Source of the DNA: Escherichia coli
GTDB lineage: Bacteria > Pseudomonadota > Gammaproteobacteria > Enterobacterales > Enterobacteriaceae
Length of the DNA stretch: 64,000 nt
Direction: 5' to 3' (one strand)
Assembly (NCBI GenBank): GCA_902500205.1
Contig: GCA_902500205.1_4868.1
The translations under genes were made by a program, and so were the position numbers. Below are positions 25,624 through 53,069 of this stretch, piece by piece. A model generated the notes under the pieces. It was not told the DNA's origin. It did not search any database and saw nothing but the letters and a program-made list of their open reading frames with translations. Each line of letters starts with the position of its first letter. The first letter of the stretch is position 1.

Positions 25624-25699
25624 AGGAAAGTGACGCAATTGGTAGCGTACCGGTCTCCAAAACCGGCTGTTTAGAGTTCGAGTCTCTACTTTCCTGCCA
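25624..25699 (+). tRNA. tRNA-Trp (anticodon CCA), 3' CCA encoded
   Basis: Manual cloverleaf: acceptor AGGAAAG/CTTTCCT, D-stem ACGC/GCGT with GG in loop, anticodon stem CCGGT/ACCGG with loop CTCCAAA, T-arm TAGAG-TTCGAGT-CTCTA. Confidence 0.85.
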
Positions 25700-27047: not shown

Positions 27048-27117
27048 GGCTTTGTAGCTCAGGTAGGTAGAGCAGCCTCTTCGAGGAAGGTCGCCGGTTC
27101 GAGACCGGTCAAAGCAA
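27048..27117 (+). pseudogene. tRNA-like element with truncated anticodon arm (degenerate tRNA?)
   Basis: Good acceptor (6 of 7 bp), D-arm GCTC-AGGTAGGTA-GAGC and T-arm GCCGG-TTCGAGA-CCGGT, but the anticodon arm is only CCTC-TTC-GAGG. Confidence 0.3.
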
Positions 27118-39889: not shown

Positions 39890-41743
39890 ATGGTAAAAAT
39901 CGTTGACTCTAACAACAACGCTCAGCAGAACAACACTCAGACTCAAGACACCGCACCACTGGGCGGTCTGGGCAACGAGACTGTAAAAGTGCAAACTGCT
40001 GTGCCGGGTACTTCTACTGTCAGCCAATTCGATAACGCATTTGGCATCCGCAACATCAGCACCTATGCAATGCACTTCGTCAACCTCCTGGACGAGCTGA
40101 AGAAAAGCAACGAATACCTCAACGCGTTCCGCTGGGGCACCATCGCCGGCGTGGGTAACGAAATGGGTTCCGCGGCGTATGTCGCAGGCCAGTGGCAGGG
40201 CCACTGGCTGTATGGTATCATCTTCTTTGAACGCGGTCAGTCTCTGCGTCTGAAAGAAACTACCAACAACGGCCAGGAAGACTACTACACCATCACTGAA
40301 CTGTTCAACAAAGACGTGCTGGCAGTAGTACAGAAAAACATCATGGAAGCGCATGGTCTGACCAATGCGAACTTCATGATCATCAACTCCGTACCAGACC
40401 TGGGTAAAGTTCTGGATGCTGAGTGGGCACGTACTCTGATGGGTCAGATGATGATGGGCATCTTCGGTCGTATCGCAGGCTACCTGGGTACGCTGAACCT
40501 GCGTAAGCATGACCGTTATCAGGCTGCAGTAATGCCGCTGGAAGATGGTGCGGTTGTGGATGCTAACGGCCACGCACAGCGTGCTGATTTCGCAATCACC
40601 GTTGAACACAGCCCAAGCAACGTAACCGACGCCACTCCGACTCTGCTGGACACCAATCAGGTACAGGTGTATCCGCGTGTATCCGGTACTGGTTTCGTCA
40701 ATATGCGTTTCACCGGTCAGAAGCCTGTCGTTAACGGCGTCTACGACCTGAAACAGCTGCAGGCTGAAATCGTAGTAAGTCTGATCGATTCTCAAACTGA
40801 AGGTGCAATGGCACCGTATGAACGTCAACTGCTGCTGCTGGCTGCATTTGCAGAAATCGCGGCAATCGGTGGCTGGCGTGACCTGTTTGTGAAACGTCTG
40901 AACAAACAAGATCGCAAGTTCTCCCGTGTGGCAGAATACCTGTCCTGGGGCGCTGACGCTCGTCCTGACGTATCCAAAATCGACGGTAGCCGTGAAGCTA
41001 TCGAAGGTTGCCTGGATATGTTCGCACCGCGTGAAGCAGCACTGGTAGTTAGCCATCGTGCCGGTAACGGCCTGGGTGGTCTGTCTACTTTGCTGTCTGA
41101 AATTGCGGTCGGTTACGACAACTCTCTGAAACAGCTGCTCGCTATTCTGAATTCCATGTCCCCGCGTGATCAGAACGGCGAAGTTGTTGCAGCGACCAGC
41201 TTCACTGCAGTATTTGCTTCTGCACTGAAAGCACAGCTGGGCGATGCCTTCAATGGTACCATCCATTGCAGCCACATCGTGAAAGCAGCCGTACCGACTG
41301 TTTCCGGTGTTTACACCGGTACTGCACAGAAACGTAGCTTCCAGGATATGGACCTGATTTCCGTTGTTACCAAACTGGGTGATAACGCGAACGACGTCTA
41401 TAGCTACCTGAACGCACAGTCCTACAGCCACCGTGAACTGAACGAGCGTCAACAGCGTATCTACATGCTGAAACTGGCCGCTTCTCTGTTCGCATCCAAA
41501 GCACCGCAAGCTACCGGTGAATCTCTGGATATGGCTATCAACCCGATCTTCGGTAAATGCCTGCTGGACTTCGTCCGTAACAACTGCACCTGGTCTATGA
41601 CTGGTGTAAATGCCTACAACACGATGGCGACCTCTCTGTTCTTCAACAACGGTGGGGAAGACTTCACGCTGTCTGGCAACGGCCTGTCTGCAAGCGGTTC
41701 CGATTTCGGTCTGGGCGTGACTCTGAGCAACTTCAAACTGTAA
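39890..41743 (+). CDS. abundant protein; candidate phage-nucleus shell protein (chimallin) or major capsid protein (617 aa)
   Basis: Strongest codon optimisation in the window; two tandem promoter motifs and conserved leader AAGGAATATTTAAAATG upstream; strong terminator downstream; size fits chimallins (about 600-630 aa). Confidence 0.45.
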   Translation: MVKIVDSNNNAQQNNTQTQDTAPLGGLGNETVKVQTAVPGTSTVSQFDNAFGIRNISTYAMHFVNLLDELKKSNEYLNAFRWGTIAGVGNEMGSAAYVAGQWQGHWLYGIIFFERGQSLRLKETTNNGQEDYYTITELFNKDVLAVVQKNIMEAHGLTNANFMIINSVPDLGKVLDAEWARTLMGQMMMGIFGRIAGYLGTLNLRKHDRYQAAVMPLEDGAVVDANGHAQRADFAITVEHSPSNVTDATPTLLDTNQVQVYPRVSGTGFVNMRFTGQKPVVNGVYDLKQLQAEIVVSLIDSQTEGAMAPYERQLLLLAAFAEIAAIGGWRDLFVKRLNKQDRKFSRVAEYLSWGADARPDVSKIDGSREAIEGCLDMFAPREAALVVSHRAGNGLGGLSTLLSEIAVGYDNSLKQLLAILNSMSPRDQNGEVVAATSFTAVFASALKAQLGDAFNGTIHCSHIVKAAVPTVSGVYTGTAQKRSFQDMDLISVVTKLGDNANDVYSYLNAQSYSHRELNERQQRIYMLKLAASLFASKAPQATGESLDMAINPIFGKCLLDFVRNNCTWSMTGVNAYNTMATSLFFNNGGEDFTLSGNGLSASGSDFGLGVTLSNFKL

Positions 41744-41825: not shown

Positions 41826-43777
41826 GTGAGAAAGGTACCAAAATTCTACGGAATATCCGGCCGGTTGGTTAGTCAGGATAACTATTTGTCCGATTTGCAA
41901 ATAGAAGCTGCTGCCAAAGGTATTAAACCACCCACTATTATTAACGATGTCGCCGTTAACGGGGATGCGATCGAGGTTGCTGAACTTATCGATCGCATGG
42001 TACAGAACAGAATCGTTGACGAAGAACTGAACTCTGCACCGATTTGTAGTTTGGATTGTCCGGCACCGATCGCGCATCGTTACAATCTCGGTTGTAAGTG
42101 TCCGACGTGTGGCTATGTTGTAACTGAACATCGAATTGAATCCGATGTCTGGTTACGTGCACCCGATGAAATGGGTAACTTCGTCAACCCACGATTCTGG
42201 GCAATGTTCAATGCTTTCTTTAATAGCAAGTTGAAGAAGTTTGAACGTAACAAGGTCACTATCGAACGCGGTAATGACTTGATGATGTGGATGATTGACC
42301 CGTATTACCGTATAGAAGAACCAGACGGTAAACGCGCACATGCTGTGAAACGTGTATTGGAAGAACATGGTTTCGTTCGTGGCTTGCGCAATCTGGTTGA
42401 TAACCACGTTAGTATCTTTAACATCCTTACCACGCCAGAAGCCTGGAAGGAAATCTTCGCACCTAATCGGCATAACGCCGCTGAAGGTGAACGCTTACGT
42501 TTACAATGGAAGGAGCTATTCGAAACGCAACGCCATGCATTCTTCCCAAGACACTTACCGCTAATCTCCTCTAAGCTTATCGTTACTGAGGAAGGTCGTC
42601 GTGGTGTCATGGTAGACCCAGTGTTCACGGGTGCTATCGATGCGGTGAAAAATATCGCGTTACTTTATACGCGGCGTAAAGCGATCGAACCACGTTTTCT
42701 GATTAGTCGCGCTTTGAAAGCCAACCGTCAGTTAACGTACTTCCACATGGACTTCCGTCGTGAGTCTATGGAAGGTAAACCGGGTGACTATCGTGCGAAA
42801 TTGGGTTCTACCCATATCCCATTCGGTGGTCGTGCAACCATCTCACCTATCTCAGAACCACACGATGCCTGGAAGTTAAAAGCACCATGGCGTTGGATGG
42901 TTGGGTTGATGTCGACCCACATCGAGAACAAACTGCTACGACGGGGTTATTCGTCACGGCAATGTGAACGTATCGTTGCAAAAGCGGCAATGCAGTATGA
43001 CCCGCTTGTAGATGAAATCTTTAAAGAACTGATTCGTGAATCCCCAGGCGGTCTTGGGATCATGGTCATACCGCTACGTAACCCAACGCTGGTACAGTTG
43101 TCTATTCAAACGCTGTACATCGATGAAGTTGTTACCGATGTTAACCAGTGTTCGCTGCGTATCTCTGACCGTGTGATCAAGATGGCTAACGGTTCGAAAA
43201 GAGCCCCATCGGACGGGAAACCTCTGATGCGTATTCTCCTGAAATGCTGGGAAACCCTAAAGCGTATCTACCAGAAATGGGGACGAAAGTCTGAAACAAC
43301 AGATACGATGGCCTACGCTAAACAATACTGCTAACGGTTGTGATAATGGGTAATCAGCAGCGAAGCCTCGTGAGAGGAACGTTCAACGACTATCGCTGAA
43401 ATGCGAGTAGGGGTCCCAGTGGACTTCGAAGTGGGAGAACACCTAAGGCGATAGCTATGGTGAAGATATAGTCTGTGCCTTATCGAGAGATAAGGAGGGT
43501 GTCTTAGCACACCTGCTGTATACGGAAACGGTATACGGTGGACAAACAGGATTTCGATGGCGACCAGTTCCAGGTACGTTTGCCAGTCGATGAAACTGAG
43601 ATGAAGTTGGCGCTCCAATTCCGTCCAGATAACGGCTTTATGTCTTCTACTGATGTGGACCGCGTAGAACACGGCATGGTTTTACATAACGAGCTAATCA
43701 GTATGCAGAACCAGTTCCTTATTGAAGCAGATGAGGATGATGAAGAAGGCATTCCGTTGGAAGCGGTGATGGGCTAA
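41826..43777 (+). CDS. RNA polymerase beta-prime subunit, N-terminal fragment, interrupted by a group I intron (exon 1 from 41826 to about 43166, exon 2 from about 43532 to 43777)
   Basis: Zn-finger-like CSLDC..CKCPTC; NPTLVQLSIQ matches beta-prime APTLHRLGIQ; exon 2 carries DFDGDQFQVRLP (catalytic NADFDGDQ); GTG start with GAGG upstream. Confidence 0.7.
43167..43531 (+). ncRNA. group I self-splicing intron (boundaries approximate)
   Basis: Canonical core elements: Q-like AATCAGCAGC (43351), R GTTCAACGACTA (43381..43392), S AAGATATAGTC (43463..43473, identical to the Tetrahymena S element), P9 hairpin CCTTATC..GATAAGG; 5' exon can end in T and intron in G with frame restored. Confidence 0.7.
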
Positions 43778-44842: not shown

Positions 44843-45516
44843 TGAGCCAGGAACCTACATTTAACGGTGTACCGTTAAGTCAGATGAATGAGCAGATGCG
44901 CTTTGAGTATAACAAACTCAAAGAGATTGAAAAGGATTTGGCGGAAAGCCAGAACGTCTGTAGCGTCTTCACCGAAGCACAGTTCCGACGTCAGGGCTTA
45001 CCACTGTTGTCCGGGATGCTTGATGGTACTTTTAACGAAGAGACCTGGACGGCTTACGTAGGAAGTCCATTTGTACCCCTACAGATTGTGGACGATGCTG
45101 ATAATAGCAAACTGCTATTTACCATCCCCGCTCTGCTGAACACCGGCCGCTCGTTAATCACCGTTGACGGCGAACCTTCCCTCTCTGATGAGACTGAGTA
45201 CATCCGTCGTCAGGTTGATGTGATTGCAACCGTCGGTGAAACCCAGATGTACAAGATGATCGATTACACCCTAACCGGGATCGAAAATATGTCTCTGGCT
45301 GAAAATTCAGTTCGTGCGAAGTACATTATTGACTTGCTGAACTGGATTTTCCGACGCTACGGTGTGGGTGGTCAATTGCCATATCCGGAAGGGTTGGTTG
45401 AATACGTCGATAAAATTACTGGCGGTAAAAACACGGCGACAGCTGCAGAGACTTCGGTGCAAGCCCCAGCTCAAACGCAGCCAATCGTAGGGATCGGTGA
45501 TGGAGAAGATTACTAA
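44842..45516 (+). CDS. hypothetical protein (224 aa)
   Basis: ATGA overlap with the upstream gene. Confidence 0.55.
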   Translation: MSQEPTFNGVPLSQMNEQMRFEYNKLKEIEKDLAESQNVCSVFTEAQFRRQGLPLLSGMLDGTFNEETWTAYVGSPFVPLQIVDDADNSKLLFTIPALLNTGRSLITVDGEPSLSDETEYIRRQVDVIATVGETQMYKMIDYTLTGIENMSLAENSVRAKYIIDLLNWIFRRYGVGGQLPYPEGLVEYVDKITGGKNTATAAETSVQAPAQTQPIVGIGDGEDY

Positions 45517-46648
45517 ACCTCCCAAGAAACCAGAAGGCGTTAAGCGCCTTTTGAACACTAATGATATCCATTTGTTGCATAAACGTGTGCCCACATGGCA
45601 CATCGTGGATGTGATACGTGAGATACTCATTAGCTGCGAAAATACGCTTGACGCCTTTTATATAGCAGGGGATTTATTTGATGATTCCCGACATCTTCGC
45701 CAGGAAGATTCTCAAGAAGCTGTGGGCTTCTTGACGTGGTTGCTCCAGTGGTCTAAGGCCACTAATACCGCCGTTCGCATCGTTGAGGGAACACCGTCCC
45801 ATGACCACGGCCAGTCCAAAATAGTTGAGTCGCTGAACATCAGTATAGGCGCAGACTGTTTGTATTTGGCAGGGATCGGGATATTTTACGATCCGGCTCT
45901 CGATGCGATGGTAGGTTGGGTGCAGGACGAATATAAAGCTGCTGGCGTCGATGAAATTAATGCTGCTGCCACTGAGGCAGAAATGGCAGAACTGATGGCG
46001 ACACGAGGCCTGGAGAAGTTAGACTTTATCTTCATGCACGGCTGCTTCCAGTTTCAACTCCCTGTCGAGTCCCCTCGTTCTTTCCACGAGGAGTTCTGGT
46101 TGCCGAGAGTCAAGCACCTGATATTTATCGGGCATGACCATCGACCCAAGGAATTAGACAAGATAAGAGTTGTAGGTAGTCCTGAGCGACTATCTCAAGG
46201 TGAAGAGGAGGACAAAGGCGTAGCTCTTGTCGATTTCACCGATACGGTTGCCAGGGATTATTTCCTGGTTAACCCACGCGCGTGCCCGCAGAAAAAGATT
46301 CGGGCACAGGAAGACTTTGATGCGCAGTTAGCAGCTTGTCTTTCTGCATTAGAATACATCGACAATCATCCTTCGTCCGCTATTGGACGATTTGAAGTCG
46401 AGTATTACGCAGGTTCACCGATGGCCGAATATGTTAGTCGGTGGAAAAAAGAATACACGTTCCACATTTCTGGAGAACGTGTGCGCTCCTCTGAAGAAGA
46501 GGAGTTGTTAGTGAAGAGTTTTTCGAACGAAGCCCCAGTGTACGAAAAACCTACTCCTGAGAACTTCGAACGGTTGGTTCTCGAAGAGCTAACATCAGTG
46601 AAGTACGACCCTGATGTTGTTACTGCAATCATTAGGAAAATAGAATGA
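45500..46648 (+). CDS. SbcD/Mre11-like calcineurin-type phosphoesterase (recombination/repair nuclease)
   Basis: Ordered metallophosphatase motifs: NDIHL (D.H), GDLFDD (GD..D), GTPSHD (GNHD-like), FMHGC, GHDHRP. Confidence 0.65.
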   Translation: MEKITKPPKKPEGVKRLLNTNDIHLLHKRVPTWHIVDVIREILISCENTLDAFYIAGDLFDDSRHLRQEDSQEAVGFLTWLLQWSKATNTAVRIVEGTPSHDHGQSKIVESLNISIGADCLYLAGIGIFYDPALDAMVGWVQDEYKAAGVDEINAAATEAEMAELMATRGLEKLDFIFMHGCFQFQLPVESPRSFHEEFWLPRVKHLIFIGHDHRPKELDKIRVVGSPERLSQGEEEDKGVALVDFTDTVARDYFLVNPRACPQKKIRAQEDFDAQLAACLSALEYIDNHPSSAIGRFEVEYYAGSPMAEYVSRWKKEYTFHISGERVRSSEEEELLVKSFSNEAPVYEKPTPENFERLVLEELTSVKYDPDVVTAIIRKIE

Positions 46649-47481
46649 ATCCAATCAGTGTTGATCGCACTTTCGGGTTCTATTCAGTGTCAATCGCCAG
46701 TTCGCTGGCGTTTGAAGGTCTGCTGCATACCGGCGAATACGCCGACTGGAAAGGCGAATTGCCTATCCATTCCTATCAGGAAATATACCTGAATCTCCGG
46801 ACATTGTTCCGTAACGCCTTCTATGCGTTTGAAGAGAATAGAGAACGGTTAACACCCGACGTGATGCTAACATCGATTGAAGAAGATATTAATAATCTTA
46901 CGGCTACCGCGAGAGCGGTAGCCCCTTCGGTGTTATGCGTTCCGTACCTTTGTAGCTATCGTAGCGCTAACAAAGTGTTTCCCGAAGCCTCGTTCAAAAA
47001 CATCGCAGGCGGGCAGGATAAGATGACGCCAAACCAGCTGCACTATAATGCACTGGAACACGACACCTTAAAAATGTACGGTGAGAAACACGAAAATGAC
47101 TTCCGTCAATTCGATGTTTTCCCAGAGGGTAGCCGCGACACACTGTTACTGACCCACATGCCAGCTGATCTCCTGGCACGTAAAGATTTCCCTAAACTGG
47201 GTTTGTTGGAATCACACACCGGTAAAGTGAAAACGCAACTGGAGTGGTACACCAAACTTAACGGGAAACCCCAACATATTCCGTTTAACAAAGCGTTCCT
47301 GACGTTGTTTGGCGACGGGATAATGTTTTCACCCCTCGATCGCAAAACGCGTGGGGTGGTGTTAAAAACCGCAGAGAAGTACAGCTGGAAACAGGATACC
47401 ACAATGGACCGTATTTATAACTGTCTAAAACTGGTGAATGAGCCATTTGTAATTGAACTGCTCCGCAGGCTTATGAAGTAA
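46645..47481 (+). CDS. hypothetical protein (278 aa)
   Basis: ATGA overlap with the nuclease gene. Confidence 0.55.
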   Translation: MNPISVDRTFGFYSVSIASSLAFEGLLHTGEYADWKGELPIHSYQEIYLNLRTLFRNAFYAFEENRERLTPDVMLTSIEEDINNLTATARAVAPSVLCVPYLCSYRSANKVFPEASFKNIAGGQDKMTPNQLHYNALEHDTLKMYGEKHENDFRQFDVFPEGSRDTLLLTHMPADLLARKDFPKLGLLESHTGKVKTQLEWYTKLNGKPQHIPFNKAFLTLFGDGIMFSPLDRKTRGVVLKTAEKYSWKQDTTMDRIYNCLKLVNEPFVIELLRRLMK

Positions 47482-47546
47482 GTTAAAATTTACGTTAGTG
47501 GGACATCATGTGTGAACCACTAGACTGCTTTTCCGAAAAGGATGAA

Positions 47547-48206
47547 ATGATGATTAACCAAGAAATTTTCAAAGACAAATGGCTTTACCCGCAGACCGAA
47601 CCGGATCAGCAAAACCGTACGCGTAAACTCAACATCGAACCGAATGATTTCAACGGCGATGTTGAAACTTTGAAGTTTAGCTACTCCTTTGGTAAGGGCG
47701 AAGGTCTCTATTTCTCTGCGCCGATTACGGTTTGCCGTACCATTATCGAAGCTCTGCAGGATTGTCTGCGTAAGAGCGAAAAGAGTATGCTGAAGTTTAC
47801 TAACGAAAACGGCAACAAACCGCCCGTTAGTCTGATTGTTGGCCGTGAAGACAACCTGGTACCGTTCATCGCTATTGCCGGTGAAATCCAGGGCGTTGGT
47901 GCCCGCCAGAAGAAGTTCTACTTCTCCTACCCGAAAGGTTTCCGTATTTTCCGCGACGGCCAGCAGGTTTCTGATTTAGAACTTGCCGAGCGCTGCGCAC
48001 GTGCGTTTATCACTAACTTCGAGAAGTTCTTACAGAACCTGGAAGAGAAATATAAGCCGCGTGAATTCCAGCAAGGTGGTGGTAGCTTCGGTCGTGGCGG
48101 ATACGGCGGTGGCCAGGGTGGTGGTCAGCGTAGCGGCGGCGGTTATCAACAGCAGCAACAATCTGCACCTCCAGCAACCACTGATTCTTACGACGAATTC
48201 CTCTAA
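47547..48206 (+). CDS. possible single-stranded DNA-binding protein (Gly/Gln-rich tail ending DSYDEFL)
   Basis: C-terminal GGGSFGRGGYGGGQGGGQRSGGGYQQQQQ tract followed by an acidic/aromatic tip, as in SSB-type proteins; AAAGGA upstream; beside the nuclease gene. Confidence 0.3.
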   Translation: MMINQEIFKDKWLYPQTEPDQQNRTRKLNIEPNDFNGDVETLKFSYSFGKGEGLYFSAPITVCRTIIEALQDCLRKSEKSMLKFTNENGNKPPVSLIVGREDNLVPFIAIAGEIQGVGARQKKFYFSYPKGFRIFRDGQQVSDLELAERCARAFITNFEKFLQNLEEKYKPREFQQGGGSFGRGGYGGGQGGGQRSGGGYQQQQQSAPPATTDSYDEFL

Positions 48207-48292
48207 GAAACAAAATAAAAAATACGCCCAAGGGAAACCTTGGGCTATTAACGCTTATGCGTGGTCCTGCAACACACACTGTAAGAAGATTT

Positions 48293-48313: not shown

Positions 48314-48341
48314 AATCGACTATTCGCGGAGTTCAACTATA

Positions 48342-49976
48342 ATGAAAATTATGAAGATTAAAGACCGGATGACAATCGAGCATCGTGGTCAAGAGGTCAC
48401 ATTTATTGGCTTACGTTATCGGAAGGATAACAACGCACCCGACTACATCACTGTTAAAGGTAAACAGATTGCACGCGACAACATTCTCTTCATGGAATTA
48501 CAACGCGTGTGGGATTATTTAACGCCAGACGAACAAGATGAACTGTTCATGGCGTATCTGATGCTGGACGAGCTGGCAAACGAATCGACGGAAACGCAGC
48601 GTAAGCACATGCCGAAGATTGTGCAGACGATTGCGAAGTTCCACAAGGCCGAAGTGTATCGTAAGCTGTATCCCATCGATAAGCTGTGGATTCCGCAGAA
48701 CATGGAAGATACGCACGATGAAATGAACAGTAATTATCCGGAAGCGATGACGTACATTCGTCCGGACTATTACGAGTTGTTGATACTGGTCCTGATGATT
48801 AAACCGTATATTCCGGTGTTCCTCACCATGGGGACGTTCCCGATAGGTAAGAACTTGCCAATCGAAACACATCGGAAAATGGTGTACAATCTGACATACT
48901 GTCTGGAGATGCTTCAAGACACAGAAGTCATGTCTTTACCTGCTATTCCGAAACTGCGTGGGTTCCTACAGACAGTGATGGAAAAGGTAGAAAAAGAACT
49001 GGCAAACAAAGGTACGAACAGCACCAGTTTGTCGGTACTGGCTACGGTGCGGGGCTATGGCACGGATATGATGGAAGATTATATCCTGGCGTATGCTATT
49101 ATTAAATTGTTGGCTGTCCGTGAAGTCGGTGGTGAATTACCGATTGAAATCATGGTTAACAACAATATCGTCACCGGCATGTATTTTCTGGTTAAACAAG
49201 AGATTGAAACAGGTTTTGCAAACAAAATCTCTAACCAGCCGGTGCTGTTAAAAGCGCATCCGGAAAGTGTGGTATTCAATGGCGAAAAGGGTAAGATAAA
49301 CGCCATGGATTTGGTGCAGGCACGTTCTCCTGCACAGATGAAAGAATACGTCCGTACCGAGTACGTATTTAAAGAATACCGCTCTTTCTTGAAAACAATG
49401 CGTCTGGATAATGCCGCTCCAGCAGATGTTAAGTTATTGATTGATTCGCAACTGGCAACACATGACGGTCCTGTCTATACGTTGCACGAATGGTTAGTCG
49501 CATTAGCACTCCATCGTAGCGTGCATTATAAGACGTATACTGAATGTGGACCAGAAGCGTTTCGCTACGGTATGGCGTTGGCACAGGCAACTTATCTCAA
49601 TTATGGAATGTATGACGTTGCGCAACTGTTAAGTTGCAATATGGTGCGTTCTGAGATGTCTGCCGGTTATGCAGCCGACCCAATTCGATCTGAACTCAAA
49701 GCAGATTTAGATAGATATTATCTTCAGGAGTATCGCAACCCGCGTAATCTCGAACCGCAATCTACACCACGGGAATCACTGACCTTGTTACACAAGGATC
49801 ACATCAACCCGTATCTGTTCCATCTCAGGGCTACACCAGAAGCAGCTGCGCTGCTGAAGTGTGAGACGGATCAGCCAAACTATATACCTCACTTGTCACT
49901 GCACAATAGCCTGGCGGAGTTTATGGTGTTGAATGCACGTCGCAAGTTAGAAGAAGTTGAATGGTTTAATTCTTAA
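48342..49976 (+). CDS. hypothetical protein (544 aa)
   Basis: Promoter motif upstream; long ORF. Confidence 0.6.
   Translation: MKIMKIKDRMTIEHRGQEVTFIGLRYRKDNNAPDYITVKGKQIARDNILFMELQRVWDYLTPDEQDELFMAYLMLDELANESTETQRKHMPKIVQTIAKFHKAEVYRKLYPIDKLWIPQNMEDTHDEMNSNYPEAMTYIRPDYYELLILVLMIKPYIPVFLTMGTFPIGKNLPIETHRKMVYNLTYCLEMLQDTEVMSLPAIPKLRGFLQTVMEKVEKELANKGTNSTSLSVLATVRGYGTDMMEDYILAYAIIKLLAVREVGGELPIEIMVNNNIVTGMYFLVKQEIETGFANKISNQPVLLKAHPESVVFNGEKGKINAMDLVQARSPAQMKEYVRTEYVFKEYRSFLKTMRLDNAAPADVKLLIDSQLATHDGPVYTLHEWLVALALHRSVHYKTYTECGPEAFRYGMALAQATYLNYGMYDVAQLLSCNMVRSEMSAGYAADPIRSELKADLDRYYLQEYRNPRNLEPQSTPRESLTLLHKDHINPYLFHLRATPEAAALLKCETDQPNYIPHLSLHNSLAEFMVLNARRKLEEVEWFNS
49709..49729 (+). promoter_or_regulatory. 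phage promoter-like motif, class 1, intragenic (TAGATAGATATTATCTTCAGG)
   Basis: Full-length motif copy inside the 3' end of CDS 48342..49976, about 260 nt upstream of gene 49989. Confidence 0.4.
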
Positions 49977-49988
49977 GGAGTATTTAAA

Positions 49989-51689
49989 ATGCAGCTTGTA
50001 AATCTACTGATGTATCCGGTCTACGATGTTCCAGAGCAAGTTCGTCGCCGCATCGGCTTTAACGCATCGACGGGTGCACTGGATGACTTAGCAGCAGCGG
50101 TTGAACTGGGCGGGGAAAAAGCTGTGGGAACACAGCAGTATCAAGAAGCATTATCTGCCATCGTGGGCTTCGATGGCACCCAGAATGGTTTTGAGCGTCC
50201 ATTCATCAACGTGTCCGATGATGACAATCGTCCTGTACAGTTCCAATGGGAATCACGTGATACCGGTATCTTTAACTTCGTGGCGGTGTTTATTGCTAAA
50301 CCTCTGAATGCAACACGCACTCAGGAAACGCAATACATCGTCTCCGGTTATACCAGTCAGGCAGAAACCAGCCTGGGTAGCTTGCTGCCGGACGATATGG
50401 TGTTGTACATTAACGACATCTACGGCTTACAGGCAACGTATACACACGATGCCCTGGGCGGCAAAACATTGAACCCAGACTCATTCCGTCTACTGGATAA
50501 CTACGTTTTATCGAAAGCGTTGTCTGTTGAAGGTCAAACAGAAAGTACGGTAGATATCATTTCGATCGCGAAAGCGGCGGACATGGTAAAACGTATTGAA
50601 ATGAATAGCGGTGAGAAGTTCGTCCCAACGAGCGACTCTGTGCTATCCGCAACCAGTAGCTCTGCACCACAGTTGATGGTATCCCAACTCCAGCGTCCAG
50701 AAAACTACGTATCTGCCATCAGTAATGCGTATCTGGCAAGCTCTGGGGTAGATACCGAACTCGGTAGCGTGGAAAGCTTCTTTGCAGGTAATAACTCCAT
50801 CGGCGTTGAATCTGAATTGAAGCAACGTGGTGTTATCCGTAACTACAGCAACCACGAACTGATTGCTGCGATGCGTCAAGCACTCCAGAACGGGATGTCT
50901 GATGTATCTGGCGGCTGGAAAGCAACCAGTAAGGCGACGTTCCGTTTGGCTGATTTGCGTAATGCGATTGTCAACCCAATGCGGTTGGATGAATGTATCC
51001 GTGAATCGCTGGCGCTGGCAAGTCGCCGTGGGTTGGGTGCAGGGCTGGTTAACCAAACCGACCACTGGATTGGACGTAATGGCTTCTCCACGCAGGGTAG
51101 TCTAGTTGCGTATGATCTGGCTATGTCTATCGGGCCGATTATGTCACGTAACCTGATTGGTGAAGTGAGCTTTGTCTTTGATAACCGCAACACAGATATC
51201 ATGATAGAGCCTACGCTGGAAGTTATTCCTAACTCAGTCAGCAGCATCACGCACCATCAGTTACCTGCTGCTTTAGGTCGTCGTTTCTTGCAGAACATGA
51301 AAGAAGCGATGGTTCAGGTTACTAAACATAACCATATTCGCTGCCACATGCTGGTCACCGCATTGTTGGGGACCGTTACTCGTATTGAAATCCGTGTCGA
51401 CGACGAACCGCTGGAATATTACACCTACGCGTCGTTTATGCAATTCCGTCTCCATACCGGCAACACCACCGATCTCAAATACGTTGGTGAGCTGGCACAG
51501 AACACCGCAACGCTGTTGAAAGCCGTGGAAGAAGGTTATACAGAATTCGAGAAAGGCCAAGGCCGGGGTCGAATGCTATCTAACATTCCAACTAACACAG
51601 GTGGCTTAGATCCTCTTGGAGGTCTTGACCTGGGTGGTGGCTTAGGCGGTATAGGCGGAAACGGACTCGGCAACGGTCTCATTGATTAA
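49989..51689 (+). CDS. hypothetical protein with Gly-rich low-complexity C-terminal tail (566 aa)
   Basis: Conserved leader TAAGGAGTATTTAAAATG; C-terminus GGLDPLGGLDLGGGLGGIGGNGLGNGL. Confidence 0.6.
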   Translation: MQLVNLLMYPVYDVPEQVRRRIGFNASTGALDDLAAAVELGGEKAVGTQQYQEALSAIVGFDGTQNGFERPFINVSDDDNRPVQFQWESRDTGIFNFVAVFIAKPLNATRTQETQYIVSGYTSQAETSLGSLLPDDMVLYINDIYGLQATYTHDALGGKTLNPDSFRLLDNYVLSKALSVEGQTESTVDIISIAKAADMVKRIEMNSGEKFVPTSDSVLSATSSSAPQLMVSQLQRPENYVSAISNAYLASSGVDTELGSVESFFAGNNSIGVESELKQRGVIRNYSNHELIAAMRQALQNGMSDVSGGWKATSKATFRLADLRNAIVNPMRLDECIRESLALASRRGLGAGLVNQTDHWIGRNGFSTQGSLVAYDLAMSIGPIMSRNLIGEVSFVFDNRNTDIMIEPTLEVIPNSVSSITHHQLPAALGRRFLQNMKEAMVQVTKHNHIRCHMLVTALLGTVTRIEIRVDDEPLEYYTYASFMQFRLHTGNTTDLKYVGELAQNTATLLKAVEEGYTEFEKGQGRGRMLSNIPTNTGGLDPLGGLDLGGGLGGIGGNGLGNGLID

Positions 51690-51701
51690 GGATTATTAAC
51701 C

Positions 51702-53069
51702 ATGAAATTGATTGAATTCTACCGTTCGTTTCTGACCTCGCTCGGATACGGATTCGAAGGTGACATGTTGACCATCGATGATGGTCATCCGGCAATGTTC
51801 ACCTACAACAAAGTGAAGCGCCGCTTGGTGCTTCCAACTGCAGCGATGATTAAGCGTGGGTTGGAAGATGACGAAGGTAGTGAATGTCATGCGTTCCACC
51901 CACTGTGTGAATCGGTACTGGCTGGCGAATCTGGAACGATTCGTTTCCTGAAGAAAGCCATCAGCGCGAACCTCTTCCTGAAAAGCTTCGAGTTAATCGA
52001 TGCGATTTTGGAAACAGCAGCCGAAGGAAAAAATATCCGTCTGGCATCGTACAAGAAGTTTTTAAGCGATGTGGTTTGTGCTGACCTGAAAGATCCAACG
52101 ATGGATAAGAAACTGGTTCAGAGCTGGCACGCAGTGAAGAACTACGTTTACGGGTTGCTGGAAGAAGATAAAAAGACAAAGATCACCAGTATCTTCATCT
52201 CCAGCGATATGACCATTGAAGGTATCAAATATATCCGCGTGGCGAACTACAAACACATGTTTGAAGAAGAGTCACTGGATGGTACGGCAACATTCTTCGG
52301 TGCCAAGCTCCAGCGTAAGCAGGATAAGGTCATTATCTTTAACCTGCTAACTGCAGTGTTTGGTTGGTATCCTTCGGTTACGGGTTCTAACGATCCGCGT
52401 CCGTACTTCGGTTCTTTGGCACGCGGTTGGGCACAATACGTGACCAACTACAATCAAGTGGTTCGTGGTCTGCGTGACCACACTCCACTGCGTCCGTTAG
52501 AAGAAGAATGGATTGGCCAACTGGATAACATGAGCGTTTATGATAACGTTATCCAAACTCTGCCGTATAATACCGGCCCACGTAACGATCAGGCAACAGA
52601 CACCACCGCAACGGATTTCCGTATCGGGCGTACACCTGCCGGTACAAAGCCGGTCGTTGCTTTAGCTTCTCAACAAGCTCCGCAGGAAAATCTTGATCTC
52701 AACGATCCGGTAAACTATTTCCGTGCGAAGAAAGCGCAACAGGCGTCTTCAGCTAATAGCTTCAATGCGTTAGCACCGAAGATTCAGGAAGCGCTGCGTG
52801 AGAACAACGGCCATTTACCGAAAGGGACAATTAAAGAACTGTCTCTCGGTGAAGCGCTGCGTGGTAATGCGGTGACGAAAGAAAGTGGTCTGGGTTCTGG
52901 TTTGCTGGGAAGTAGTAATAATCTCTTGGGGGGTAGCACGCAGTTGGGCGGCGGTAGCACCAACCTCTTAGGAGGGAGTAGTGACGTGTTAGGTGGTCTG
53001 GGTGGTTTAGGTGGCGGAAGTAGCAGCATTTTAGGCAACCTACCATTCTCATCAGCTAATTTACGTTAA
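51702..53069 (+). CDS. hypothetical protein with Gly/Ser/Leu-rich low-complexity C-terminal tail (455 aa)
   Basis: C-terminal repeats of LLGG/LGG over the last 80 residues or so; terminator downstream. Confidence 0.6.
   Translation: MKLIEFYRSFLTSLGYGFEGDMLTIDDGHPAMFTYNKVKRRLVLPTAAMIKRGLEDDEGSECHAFHPLCESVLAGESGTIRFLKKAISANLFLKSFELIDAILETAAEGKNIRLASYKKFLSDVVCADLKDPTMDKKLVQSWHAVKNYVYGLLEEDKKTKITSIFISSDMTIEGIKYIRVANYKHMFEEESLDGTATFFGAKLQRKQDKVIIFNLLTAVFGWYPSVTGSNDPRPYFGSLARGWAQYVTNYNQVVRGLRDHTPLRPLEEEWIGQLDNMSVYDNVIQTLPYNTGPRNDQATDTTATDFRIGRTPAGTKPVVALASQQAPQENLDLNDPVNYFRAKKAQQASSANSFNALAPKIQEALRENNGHLPKGTIKELSLGEALRGNAVTKESGLGSGLLGSSNNLLGGSTQLGGGSTNLLGGSSDVLGGLGGLGGGSSSILGNLPFSSANLR

Follow-up and report, generated by a model that had tools for sequence, protein, structure and literature searches.

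A stretch of 64,000 nucleotides from an assembly labelled Escherichia coli (GCA_902500205.1, contig GCA_902500205.1_4868.1), hereafter the window, carries at positions 45500–48206 three neighbouring co-oriented genes. With high probability these are core genes of a chimallivirus, and encode a nuclease of the SbcD/Mre11 family, a protein with a remote flap endonuclease (FEN) fold and ChmC, the last being distinct from the single-stranded DNA-binding proteins (SSBs) of the oligonucleotide-binding (OB) fold. The reading is directly supported by family membership, fold, synteny and tail conservation. All genes at the locus belong to known families, and the nuclease and the ChmC family were known already. 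The original prediction had placed here an SbcD/Mre11-like nuclease and a possible SSB, and had called the lack of an adjacent Rad50/SbcC-like ATPase atypical. The nuclease stands, the OB-fold SSB does not, and the missing neighbour is a known trait of this phage group.

By its sequence, the window is assigned to an SPN3US-like (Seoulvirus) nucleus-forming jumbo phage, or chimallivirus. About 30 jumbo-phage genomes of Salmonella, Escherichia and Proteus (genus Seoulvirus, SPN3US group, ~240 kb) are 98.7–99.1% identical to it over 3.5 kb around the locus, and the Salmonella phages JN03 and SPLA3 are among the records with 99% DNA identity to the window. PHROG scans covered 20 open reading frames (ORFs) of the window, ten around the locus and ten of the largest elsewhere. 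ORFs around the locus match families typical of phiKZ-like nucleus-forming phages, and pieces of a multisubunit RNA polymerase, a family-B DNA polymerase and a DnaB-like helicase are encoded in the window. The three genes are part of a conserved block, which also contains the nuclear-shell protein ChmA and subunits of the non-virion RNA polymerase. Between 39.9 and 57.8 kb the genes follow the order of phiKZ gp54–gp75, and a 617-aa protein (39890–41743, phrog_8316) occupies the slot of the phiKZ nuclear-shell protein gp54.

The first gene and its motifs are as follows.

45500–46648, plus strand: nuclease assigned to the SbcD/Mre11 family, 382 aa (phrog_100, profile comparison with PDB, BLASTP, motifs)
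45566–45574, plus strand: motif DIH (N-D-I-H, residue 21)
45668–45682, plus strand: motif GDLFD (residue 57)
45788–45805, plus strand: motif III, GTPSHD (residue 97)
46034–46042, plus strand: motif MHG (residue 179)
46130–46141, plus strand: motif GHDH (residue 211)

The ORF list starts the gene at a GTG in position 45497; the ATG at 45500 yields the 382-aa product, which is 100% identical to a database protein (P0019). The gene product matches phrog_100, the 'SbcD-like subunit of palindrome specific endonuclease', with E 3.9e-64. Searched as a single sequence, it reaches Pfam Metallophos at E 0.035 and nothing meaningful in PDB. A profile of 39 homologs (A2) matches Mre11 of T. maritima (3qg5_C, E 8.8e-8, profile 18–338 on residues 2–333), SbcD of E. 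coli (6s6v, E 3.1e-6, 204–365 on 217–379) and Mre11 of P. furiosus (E 5e-6). Each of the 15 best PDB matches of this profile is an Mre11 or SbcD structure (E 8.8e-8 to 1.7e-3), and 18 of the 39 homologs individually match Pfam Metallophos. BLASTP against phiKZ gp65 gives 34% identity (E 2e-32). These comparisons identify the protein as a member of the SbcD/Mre11 nuclease family and as the ortholog of phiKZ gp65, SPN3US gp27 and PhiPA3 gp59; the predicted nuclease is thus borne out by a profile match of nearly full length and by the PHROG family. Near-identical genomes in GenBank already have it annotated.

The five metallophosphatase motifs had been reported in the right order, and they are all present in that order, their key residues being invariant across the 39 homologs (down to 26% identity). 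The third one departs from expectation. In these phages motif III is an invariant G-T-P-S-H-D, not the canonical G-N-H-D; in the PDB alignment 'EGTPSHD' lies opposite 'PG--NHD', with an insertion of 2 residues and T-P-S in place of the metal-binding Asn. Compared with E. coli SbcD, T. maritima Mre11, T4 gp47, phiKZ gp65 and SPN3US gp27, the protein shares the five ordered motifs, profile similarity over the full length and beyond the catalytic core, an SbcC/Rad50 ATPase encoded in the same genome, and the essential nature of the gene or of its partner in SPN3US and phiKZ. It differs from bacterial SbcD/Mre11 in motif III, in lacking Pfam or PDB matches as a single sequence, and in the location of SbcC, which is ~147 kb distant and not in an operon with it.

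A tblastn search with SPN3US SbcC detects no SbcC/Rad50 gene in the 64 kb, whether next to the nuclease or farther off (best E 0.14), and no SbcC-like family occurs among the 20 ORFs scanned against PHROG; on these grounds the idea of a concealed SbcC in the window was discarded. The partner is encoded elsewhere. In SPN3US an 836-aa protein (168900–171410) matches the 'SbcC-like' phrog_77 with E 3.7e-96, and in the twelve best-matching records, all Seoulvirus-like, SbcC is present at an identity of at least 99.5%, ~147 kb from SbcD. Since SbcC is encoded elsewhere in related genomes, the concern about a missing partner is settled. Thomas et al. 2016 (PMC5105663) describe the SbcC and SbcD genes of SPN3US, phiKZ and their relatives as 'drastically separated'; the absence of Rad50/SbcC next to the nuclease had been correctly seen, and only its description as atypical has to be dropped. 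SbcCD has been called practically universal in jumbo phages (Iyer et al. 2021, PMC7824862). SPN3US gp186 (SbcC) was shown to be essential and gp27 (SbcD) deduced to be likewise (Thomas et al. 2016, PMC5105663), and plaquing is strongly reduced by knockdown of phiKZ 065 and 067 with antisense oligonucleotides (PMC12571901). SbcD most likely partners with the phage's own distant SbcC/Rad50 ATPase, and the complex would process DNA ends and hairpins inside the phage nucleus. The most likely role of the complex, on the model of T4 gp46/47 (an analogy drawn in PMC5105663 too), is end processing for recombination-dependent replication. In MT679221.1 (Proteus phage 7) the SbcC ortholog at 169774–172281 bears the annotation 'nuclease SbcCD subunit D', probably in error.

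The third gene, 47547–48206, is divided into a folded domain, a linker and a tip.

47547–48062, plus strand: ChmC ortholog, folded Whirly-like domain, residues 1–172 (predicted beta-beta-beta-alpha, then beta-beta-beta-beta-alpha)
48063–48167, plus strand: disordered G/Q-rich linker of ChmC, residues 173–207 (QQGGGSFGRGGYGGGQGGGQRSGGGYQQQQQSA), with RGG-like GRGGY and GGGY repeats and a QQSAP element
48168–48206, plus strand: acidic/aromatic C-terminal tip of ChmC, PPATTDSYDEFL, and stop codon; net charge −3

A start at 47547 is plausible (ATGATG, with AAGGA 7 nt upstream), and a longer ORF from 47508 is also present. The gene product is the ChmC ortholog, corresponding to phiKZ gp67, PhiPA3 gp61 and Goslar gp176. 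It matches the whole profile of phrog_3284 (E 1.1e-66), as does phiKZ gp67 the same family (E 6.1e-80), and the profile of the Seoulvirus-like clade (A1) aligns by hhalign with that of the phiKZ-like clade (A5) with a probability of 99.3% (E 2.2e-20). It lies in the genomic slot of gp67, gp61 and Goslar gp176, in the order SbcD, gp66-like, ChmC, gp68-like non-virion RNA polymerase, PicA-like. The predicted fold is of the Whirly/PUR type, and the five-stranded beta-barrel of the OB fold is absent from it. Searches with the single sequence gave no Pfam match and nothing meaningful in PDB. Querying the phage collection with the protein by tblastn reached Seoulvirus, Erwinia and Cronobacter relatives only, not phiKZ. 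A broad ChmC profile (A4) hit in PDB Gly-linker artefacts only, plus the tail of an SSB (3tqy) at an insignificant E 0.74. In every Seoulvirus record examined the gene is annotated merely as 'hypothetical protein'.

The OB fold that had been expected for 47547–48206 is thus replaced by a predicted Whirly-like one, and the profile search of PDB yields no significant SSB. The cue behind the suggestion was sound: the SSB-like tail is conserved in the whole family, binding to single strands is a property of Whirly proteins, and single-stranded DNA (ssDNA) is a ligand of the PhiPA3 ortholog. Plant Whirly proteins (StWhy2, p24/PBF-2) and trypanosome MRP1/MRP2 are 6–11% identical to the ChmC domain; its first repeat has three strands, not four, and the SSB-like tail of ChmC is missing from those proteins.

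Some observations weigh against this reading of the locus. The canonical metal-binding Asn is missing from motif III of SbcD. Pairwise BLASTP of the 47547–48206 product against phiKZ gp67 is insignificant (E 1.1), and because of this the orthology rests on profiles, fold and synteny. Of the six basic residues mutated in PhiPA3 ChmC (K30, K48, K59, R35, R44, R63), two lie opposite basic residues here, K30 at R26 and R44 at K43, in a poor alignment of 17–19% identity. Further conserved basic residues are found at K27, K50, R100 and K122/123.

Published ChmC orthologs have a Whirly fold and form homotetramers, and the PhiPA3 protein binds single-stranded RNA (ssRNA) with a Kd of 58 nM and ssDNA with a Kd of 184 nM (Enustun et al. 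2024, PMC11077065). Condensates of ChmC with RNA require the disordered C-terminal region. In vivo ChmC binds phage mRNAs, as seen by enhanced crosslinking and immunoprecipitation (eCLIP), and upon knockdown mRNA is retained in the nucleus, nuclei are small and contain less DNA, and virions are not formed; the tail-less protein fails to rescue the titre (PMC11077065). Homotetramers, mRNA binding in the cell and association with the nucleus have been published solely for the PhiPA3 and Goslar proteins (PMC11077065). SPN3US gp29 (24.5 kDa), a homolog of phiKZ ORF67, is essential (PMC5105663). By orthology, Seoulvirus ChmC would form tetramers, localise like its relatives and be essential; it would bind phage mRNA, with ssRNA preferred to ssDNA, and condense via its tail, and both the export of mRNA and the maturation of the phage nucleus would depend on it. 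It resembles the PhiPA3, phiKZ and Goslar proteins in PHROG family, profile match, genomic position, Whirly-type fold, disordered low-complexity tail and acidic end, and in having an essential ortholog, gp29, in SPN3US. In contrast to ChmC of the Pseudomonas phages, to which it is ~17–19% identical, the tail is G/Q-rich with RGG-like repeats, not N/G-rich, and the tip is shortened to ..D-S-Y-D-E-F-L.

The Gly/Gln-rich tail with an acidic/aromatic tip, from which an SSB had been proposed, is real: a G/Q-rich segment (residues 173–207) is followed by PPATTDSYDEFL. AlphaFold confidence (pLDDT) is 30–48 in the linker and below 50 over residues 173–209, the last 47 residues being predicted as disordered; D216 is invariant in alignment A1. 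Tails were compared in 54 ChmC proteins (43 representatives from a profile search of the whole library, close homologs and phiKZ gp67). The 42 residues preceding the tip contain on average 58% G+N+Q, against 50% in the E. coli SSB linker and 10–11% in SbcD and gp66 controls. K and R are absent from the last ten residues in 52 of the 54. In 48 the end comprises two or more acidic residues and a last residue that is hydrophobic or aromatic, and 13 terminate with the pattern of the bacterial SSB C-terminus (SSB-Ct). Canonical tips include DFDDDIPF (twice), FDDIPF, DSDIPF, DDNIPF, DDELPF, NDLPF, DNDIPY and FDDIPL; none was found in the controls (49 SbcD, 72 gp66, 80 ORFs of the window). Fourteen jumbo-phage loci from IMG/VR, retrieved with a single remote ChmC member (P0174), contribute the tips FDDDDFPM, FGDDDFPM, MDDDLPF and SDDDYNM. 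phiKZ gp67 ends in FDEDMPSF, PhiPA3 gp61 in FDDEIPNF.

The last 30 residues of the window protein align with those of E. coli SSB with a score of 44, against 20.9 ± 4.4 in shuffled sequences (p 0.001). QQSAP is common to both proteins, and a relative (P0009) has QQSAPAA in common with E. coli SSB. At the nucleotide level the ChmC tail has no similarity to host ssb, blastn-short giving GGT-repeat matches only, and recent capture of the tail from the host is therefore not supported; a recent transfer was rejected also on the different codons used for the shared QQSAP. Bacterial SSB (E. coli Ssb), T7 gp2.5 and T4 gp32 are similar to ChmC in having a disordered G/Q/N/P-rich linker and an acidic tip whose last residue is hydrophobic or aromatic. 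The likeness to bacterial SSB extends to the exact SSB-Ct motif DDDIPF, which ends many ChmC relatives, and to published orthologs being tetrameric, condensate-forming and able to bind ssDNA. Differences are the Whirly in place of the OB domain, a folded part without sequence homology, the lack of DNA similarity to ssb, and the preference of the ortholog for ssRNA and its binding of mRNA in vivo. Gly-rich low-complexity tails are also present downstream in 49989–51689 (..GGLDLGGGLGGIGGNGLGNGLID) and 51702–53069 (..LGGLGGLGGGSSSILGNLPFSSANLR), both on the plus strand and homologous to phiKZ gp69/PicA and gp70; they are of the Gly/Leu type, unlike the G/Q tail of ChmC.

Between SbcD and ChmC lies the remaining gene.

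46645–47481, plus strand: conserved 278-aa protein, phiKZ gp66 ortholog, with a predicted distant FEN or 5'-3' exonuclease-like fold

Its start overlaps the stop of SbcD (ATGA). The predicted structure features a PIN-like alpha/beta core, a helical arch and a helix-3-turn-helix (H3TH) region. A link to FEN or 5'-3' exonucleases at the level of sequence profiles was found neither in PDB, using profile A3, nor in Pfam for any of 48 members. Invariant in the family are R8, N50, T53, R56, N57, Y101, T170, E189, S190, H191, K196 and K204. E189 is the only invariant acidic residue; E24, E138, D175 and D224 are near-invariant (mapped to FEN sites by eye). Compared with the FEN superfamily (T5 D15, T4 RNase H, E. 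coli ExoIX), TM (template modelling) scores are only ~0.4, profile similarity is lacking and most of the canonical active-site carboxylates appear not to be kept. The product would be a remote 5'-nuclease of FEN fold with a remodelled active site.

In each of the 14 IMG/VR loci (one cut before SbcD), as in phiKZ, PhiPA3 and Goslar, SbcD, the FEN-like gene and ChmC follow one another on the same strand. In these phages large gene blocks are kept in fixed order (Prichard et al. 2023), and genes for the shell, for import and for RNA polymerase share the block with the three. Because the order is fixed and the block is so composed, synteny alone is not proof of a shared pathway. Among the Salmonella phage records SPFM1, 5–9, 12, 14, 15 and 20 (LR5359xx), SbcD, gp66-like and ChmC are fragmented or frameshifted in several (4–5 tblastn pieces, odd protein lengths), which suggests sequencing or assembly errors in these records, not biology.

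The likeness of the ChmC tail to that of SSB may be convergent and involve no docking, a reading to which we give a little less than an even chance. The G/N/Q linker would drive the formation of RNA condensates, and the acidic end would fold onto the basic Whirly surface, the 'electronegative cluster' suppressing non-specific binding as proposed by the ChmC authors. Their interpretation and the data on the C-terminal deletion (PMC11077065) favour it, as do the charges of the folded domain (+3, no more than mildly basic) and of the tip (−3), the different tip sequences of different clades and the lack of nucleotide similarity to ssb. A plain charge cluster, however, needs neither a conserved terminal hydrophobic or aromatic residue nor an I/L-P-F pattern, and this pattern reappears in 13 of the 54 divergent representatives, inside disordered tails which otherwise evolve fast. 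The tip of OB-fold SSBs serves both functions, autoinhibition and docking. The linker of E. coli SSB mediates its condensation, and in gp32 and gp2.5 the acidic tail acts in autoinhibition as in partner recruitment.

More tentatively, ChmC could be the missing replicative or recombination SSB of chimalliviruses, alongside or instead of its role in mRNA export. The Whirly tetramer would substitute for the OB-fold protein and carry an SSB-type disordered linker and a DDDIPF docking tip, by which DNA enzymes would be recruited in the phage nucleus. Candidates are the SbcD and FEN-like proteins encoded next to it, the polymerase, the helicase, UvsX or imported host SSB partners. mRNA export would then be only part of ChmC function. 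Kazlauskas et al. 2016 'did not detect SSBs in ... phiKZ-like phages', which they found 'rather surprising' (PMC4889955), and the features by which Iyer et al. 2021 (PMC7824862) define group 2 jumbo phages include a classic OB-fold SSB, whereas those of the phiKZ-type group 1 do not. A full-text literature search combining 'phage nucleus' and 'SSB' returned nothing that fills the gap. In the ChmC paper the term 'SSB' has 0 occurrences, and the tail is described as N/G-rich plus an 'electronegative cluster' (PMC11077065). The frequency of tips (13 of 54 canonical, 48 of 54 acidic with a hydrophobic end, none canonical in SbcD and gp66 controls or in the 80 ORFs of the window) and the resemblance of the window tail to that of E. 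coli SSB (44 vs 20.9 ± 4.4) argue for this role. The tetrameric ortholog binds ssDNA (184 nM), the nuclei formed upon knockdown hold less DNA, and the titre is not restored by the protein lacking its tail. The order SbcD, FEN-like, ChmC is kept across loci, and the SSB-Ct is described as the docking site of many genome-maintenance proteins (PMC10164576). Opposed to all this are the eCLIP signal on phage mRNAs, the preference for ssRNA and the nuclear retention of mRNA on knockdown (PMC11077065). The tip found here (DSYDEFL) and those of cultured phages are degenerate, either without Pro or with an extra residue, and DNA-level similarity to host ssb is absent; large frozen gene blocks make synteny weak evidence of a functional link, and acidic tails can be simply autoinhibitory. 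With the published in vivo evidence pointing to mRNA, and with a degenerate tip in this phage, we consider the SSB role possible but rather unlikely.

It is very improbable that 45500–46648 encodes a metallophosphatase other than an SbcCD-type nuclease, such as an LpxH-like pyrophosphatase or a stand-alone phosphodiesterase. One source labels a homolog as LpxH, LpxH profiles match weakly (E 0.08–0.75) and motif III is non-canonical; yet every significant PDB match is Mre11 or SbcD, the alignment reaches past the phosphatase core into the capping region, and SbcC is kept in the same genomes. Least credible of all is a canonical OB-fold SSB at 47547–48206, for which tail composition only speaks and which is refuted at the level of the predicted fold.

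Other features of the window accompany the chimallivirus core genes. One lies shortly after ChmC.

48226–48245, no strand assigned: GC-rich 8-bp hairpin, GCCCAAGG-GAAA-CCTTGGGC, 20 nt past the ChmC stop

The hairpin is preceded by an A-run on the plus strand, the T-run being on the minus strand; it may mark the end of the transcript or stabilise it. Scanning for sigma-70 promoters and terminators gave nothing decisive except this one hairpin. A sigma-70-like TCGACT/TATAAT pair is found at 48316–48343, directly before the next gene. Upstream of the locus, a group I intron (43174–43495, plus strand; Rfam RF00028, 69.4 bits, E 1.6e-15) separates the two parts in which the gene of the non-virion RNA polymerase is found (ORFs 41826–43334 and 43538–43777); because of it the gene looks split, and is annotated as two coding sequences in relatives. 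Two tRNA genes were identified by Rfam on the plus strand, at 25624–25696 (63.6 bits) and 27048–27117 (36.4 bits).

For the biology of these phages the locus has two implications. phiKZ 066, a conserved 'uncharacterized' core gene between SbcD and ChmC, would receive its first structural assignment, that of a predicted FEN-like protein. A conserved tail of the SSB type on a Whirly-fold protein, in a phage group without a known SSB, is the single lead that merits an experiment, and through the ChmC tail the coating of ssDNA in the phage nucleus becomes a directly testable question.

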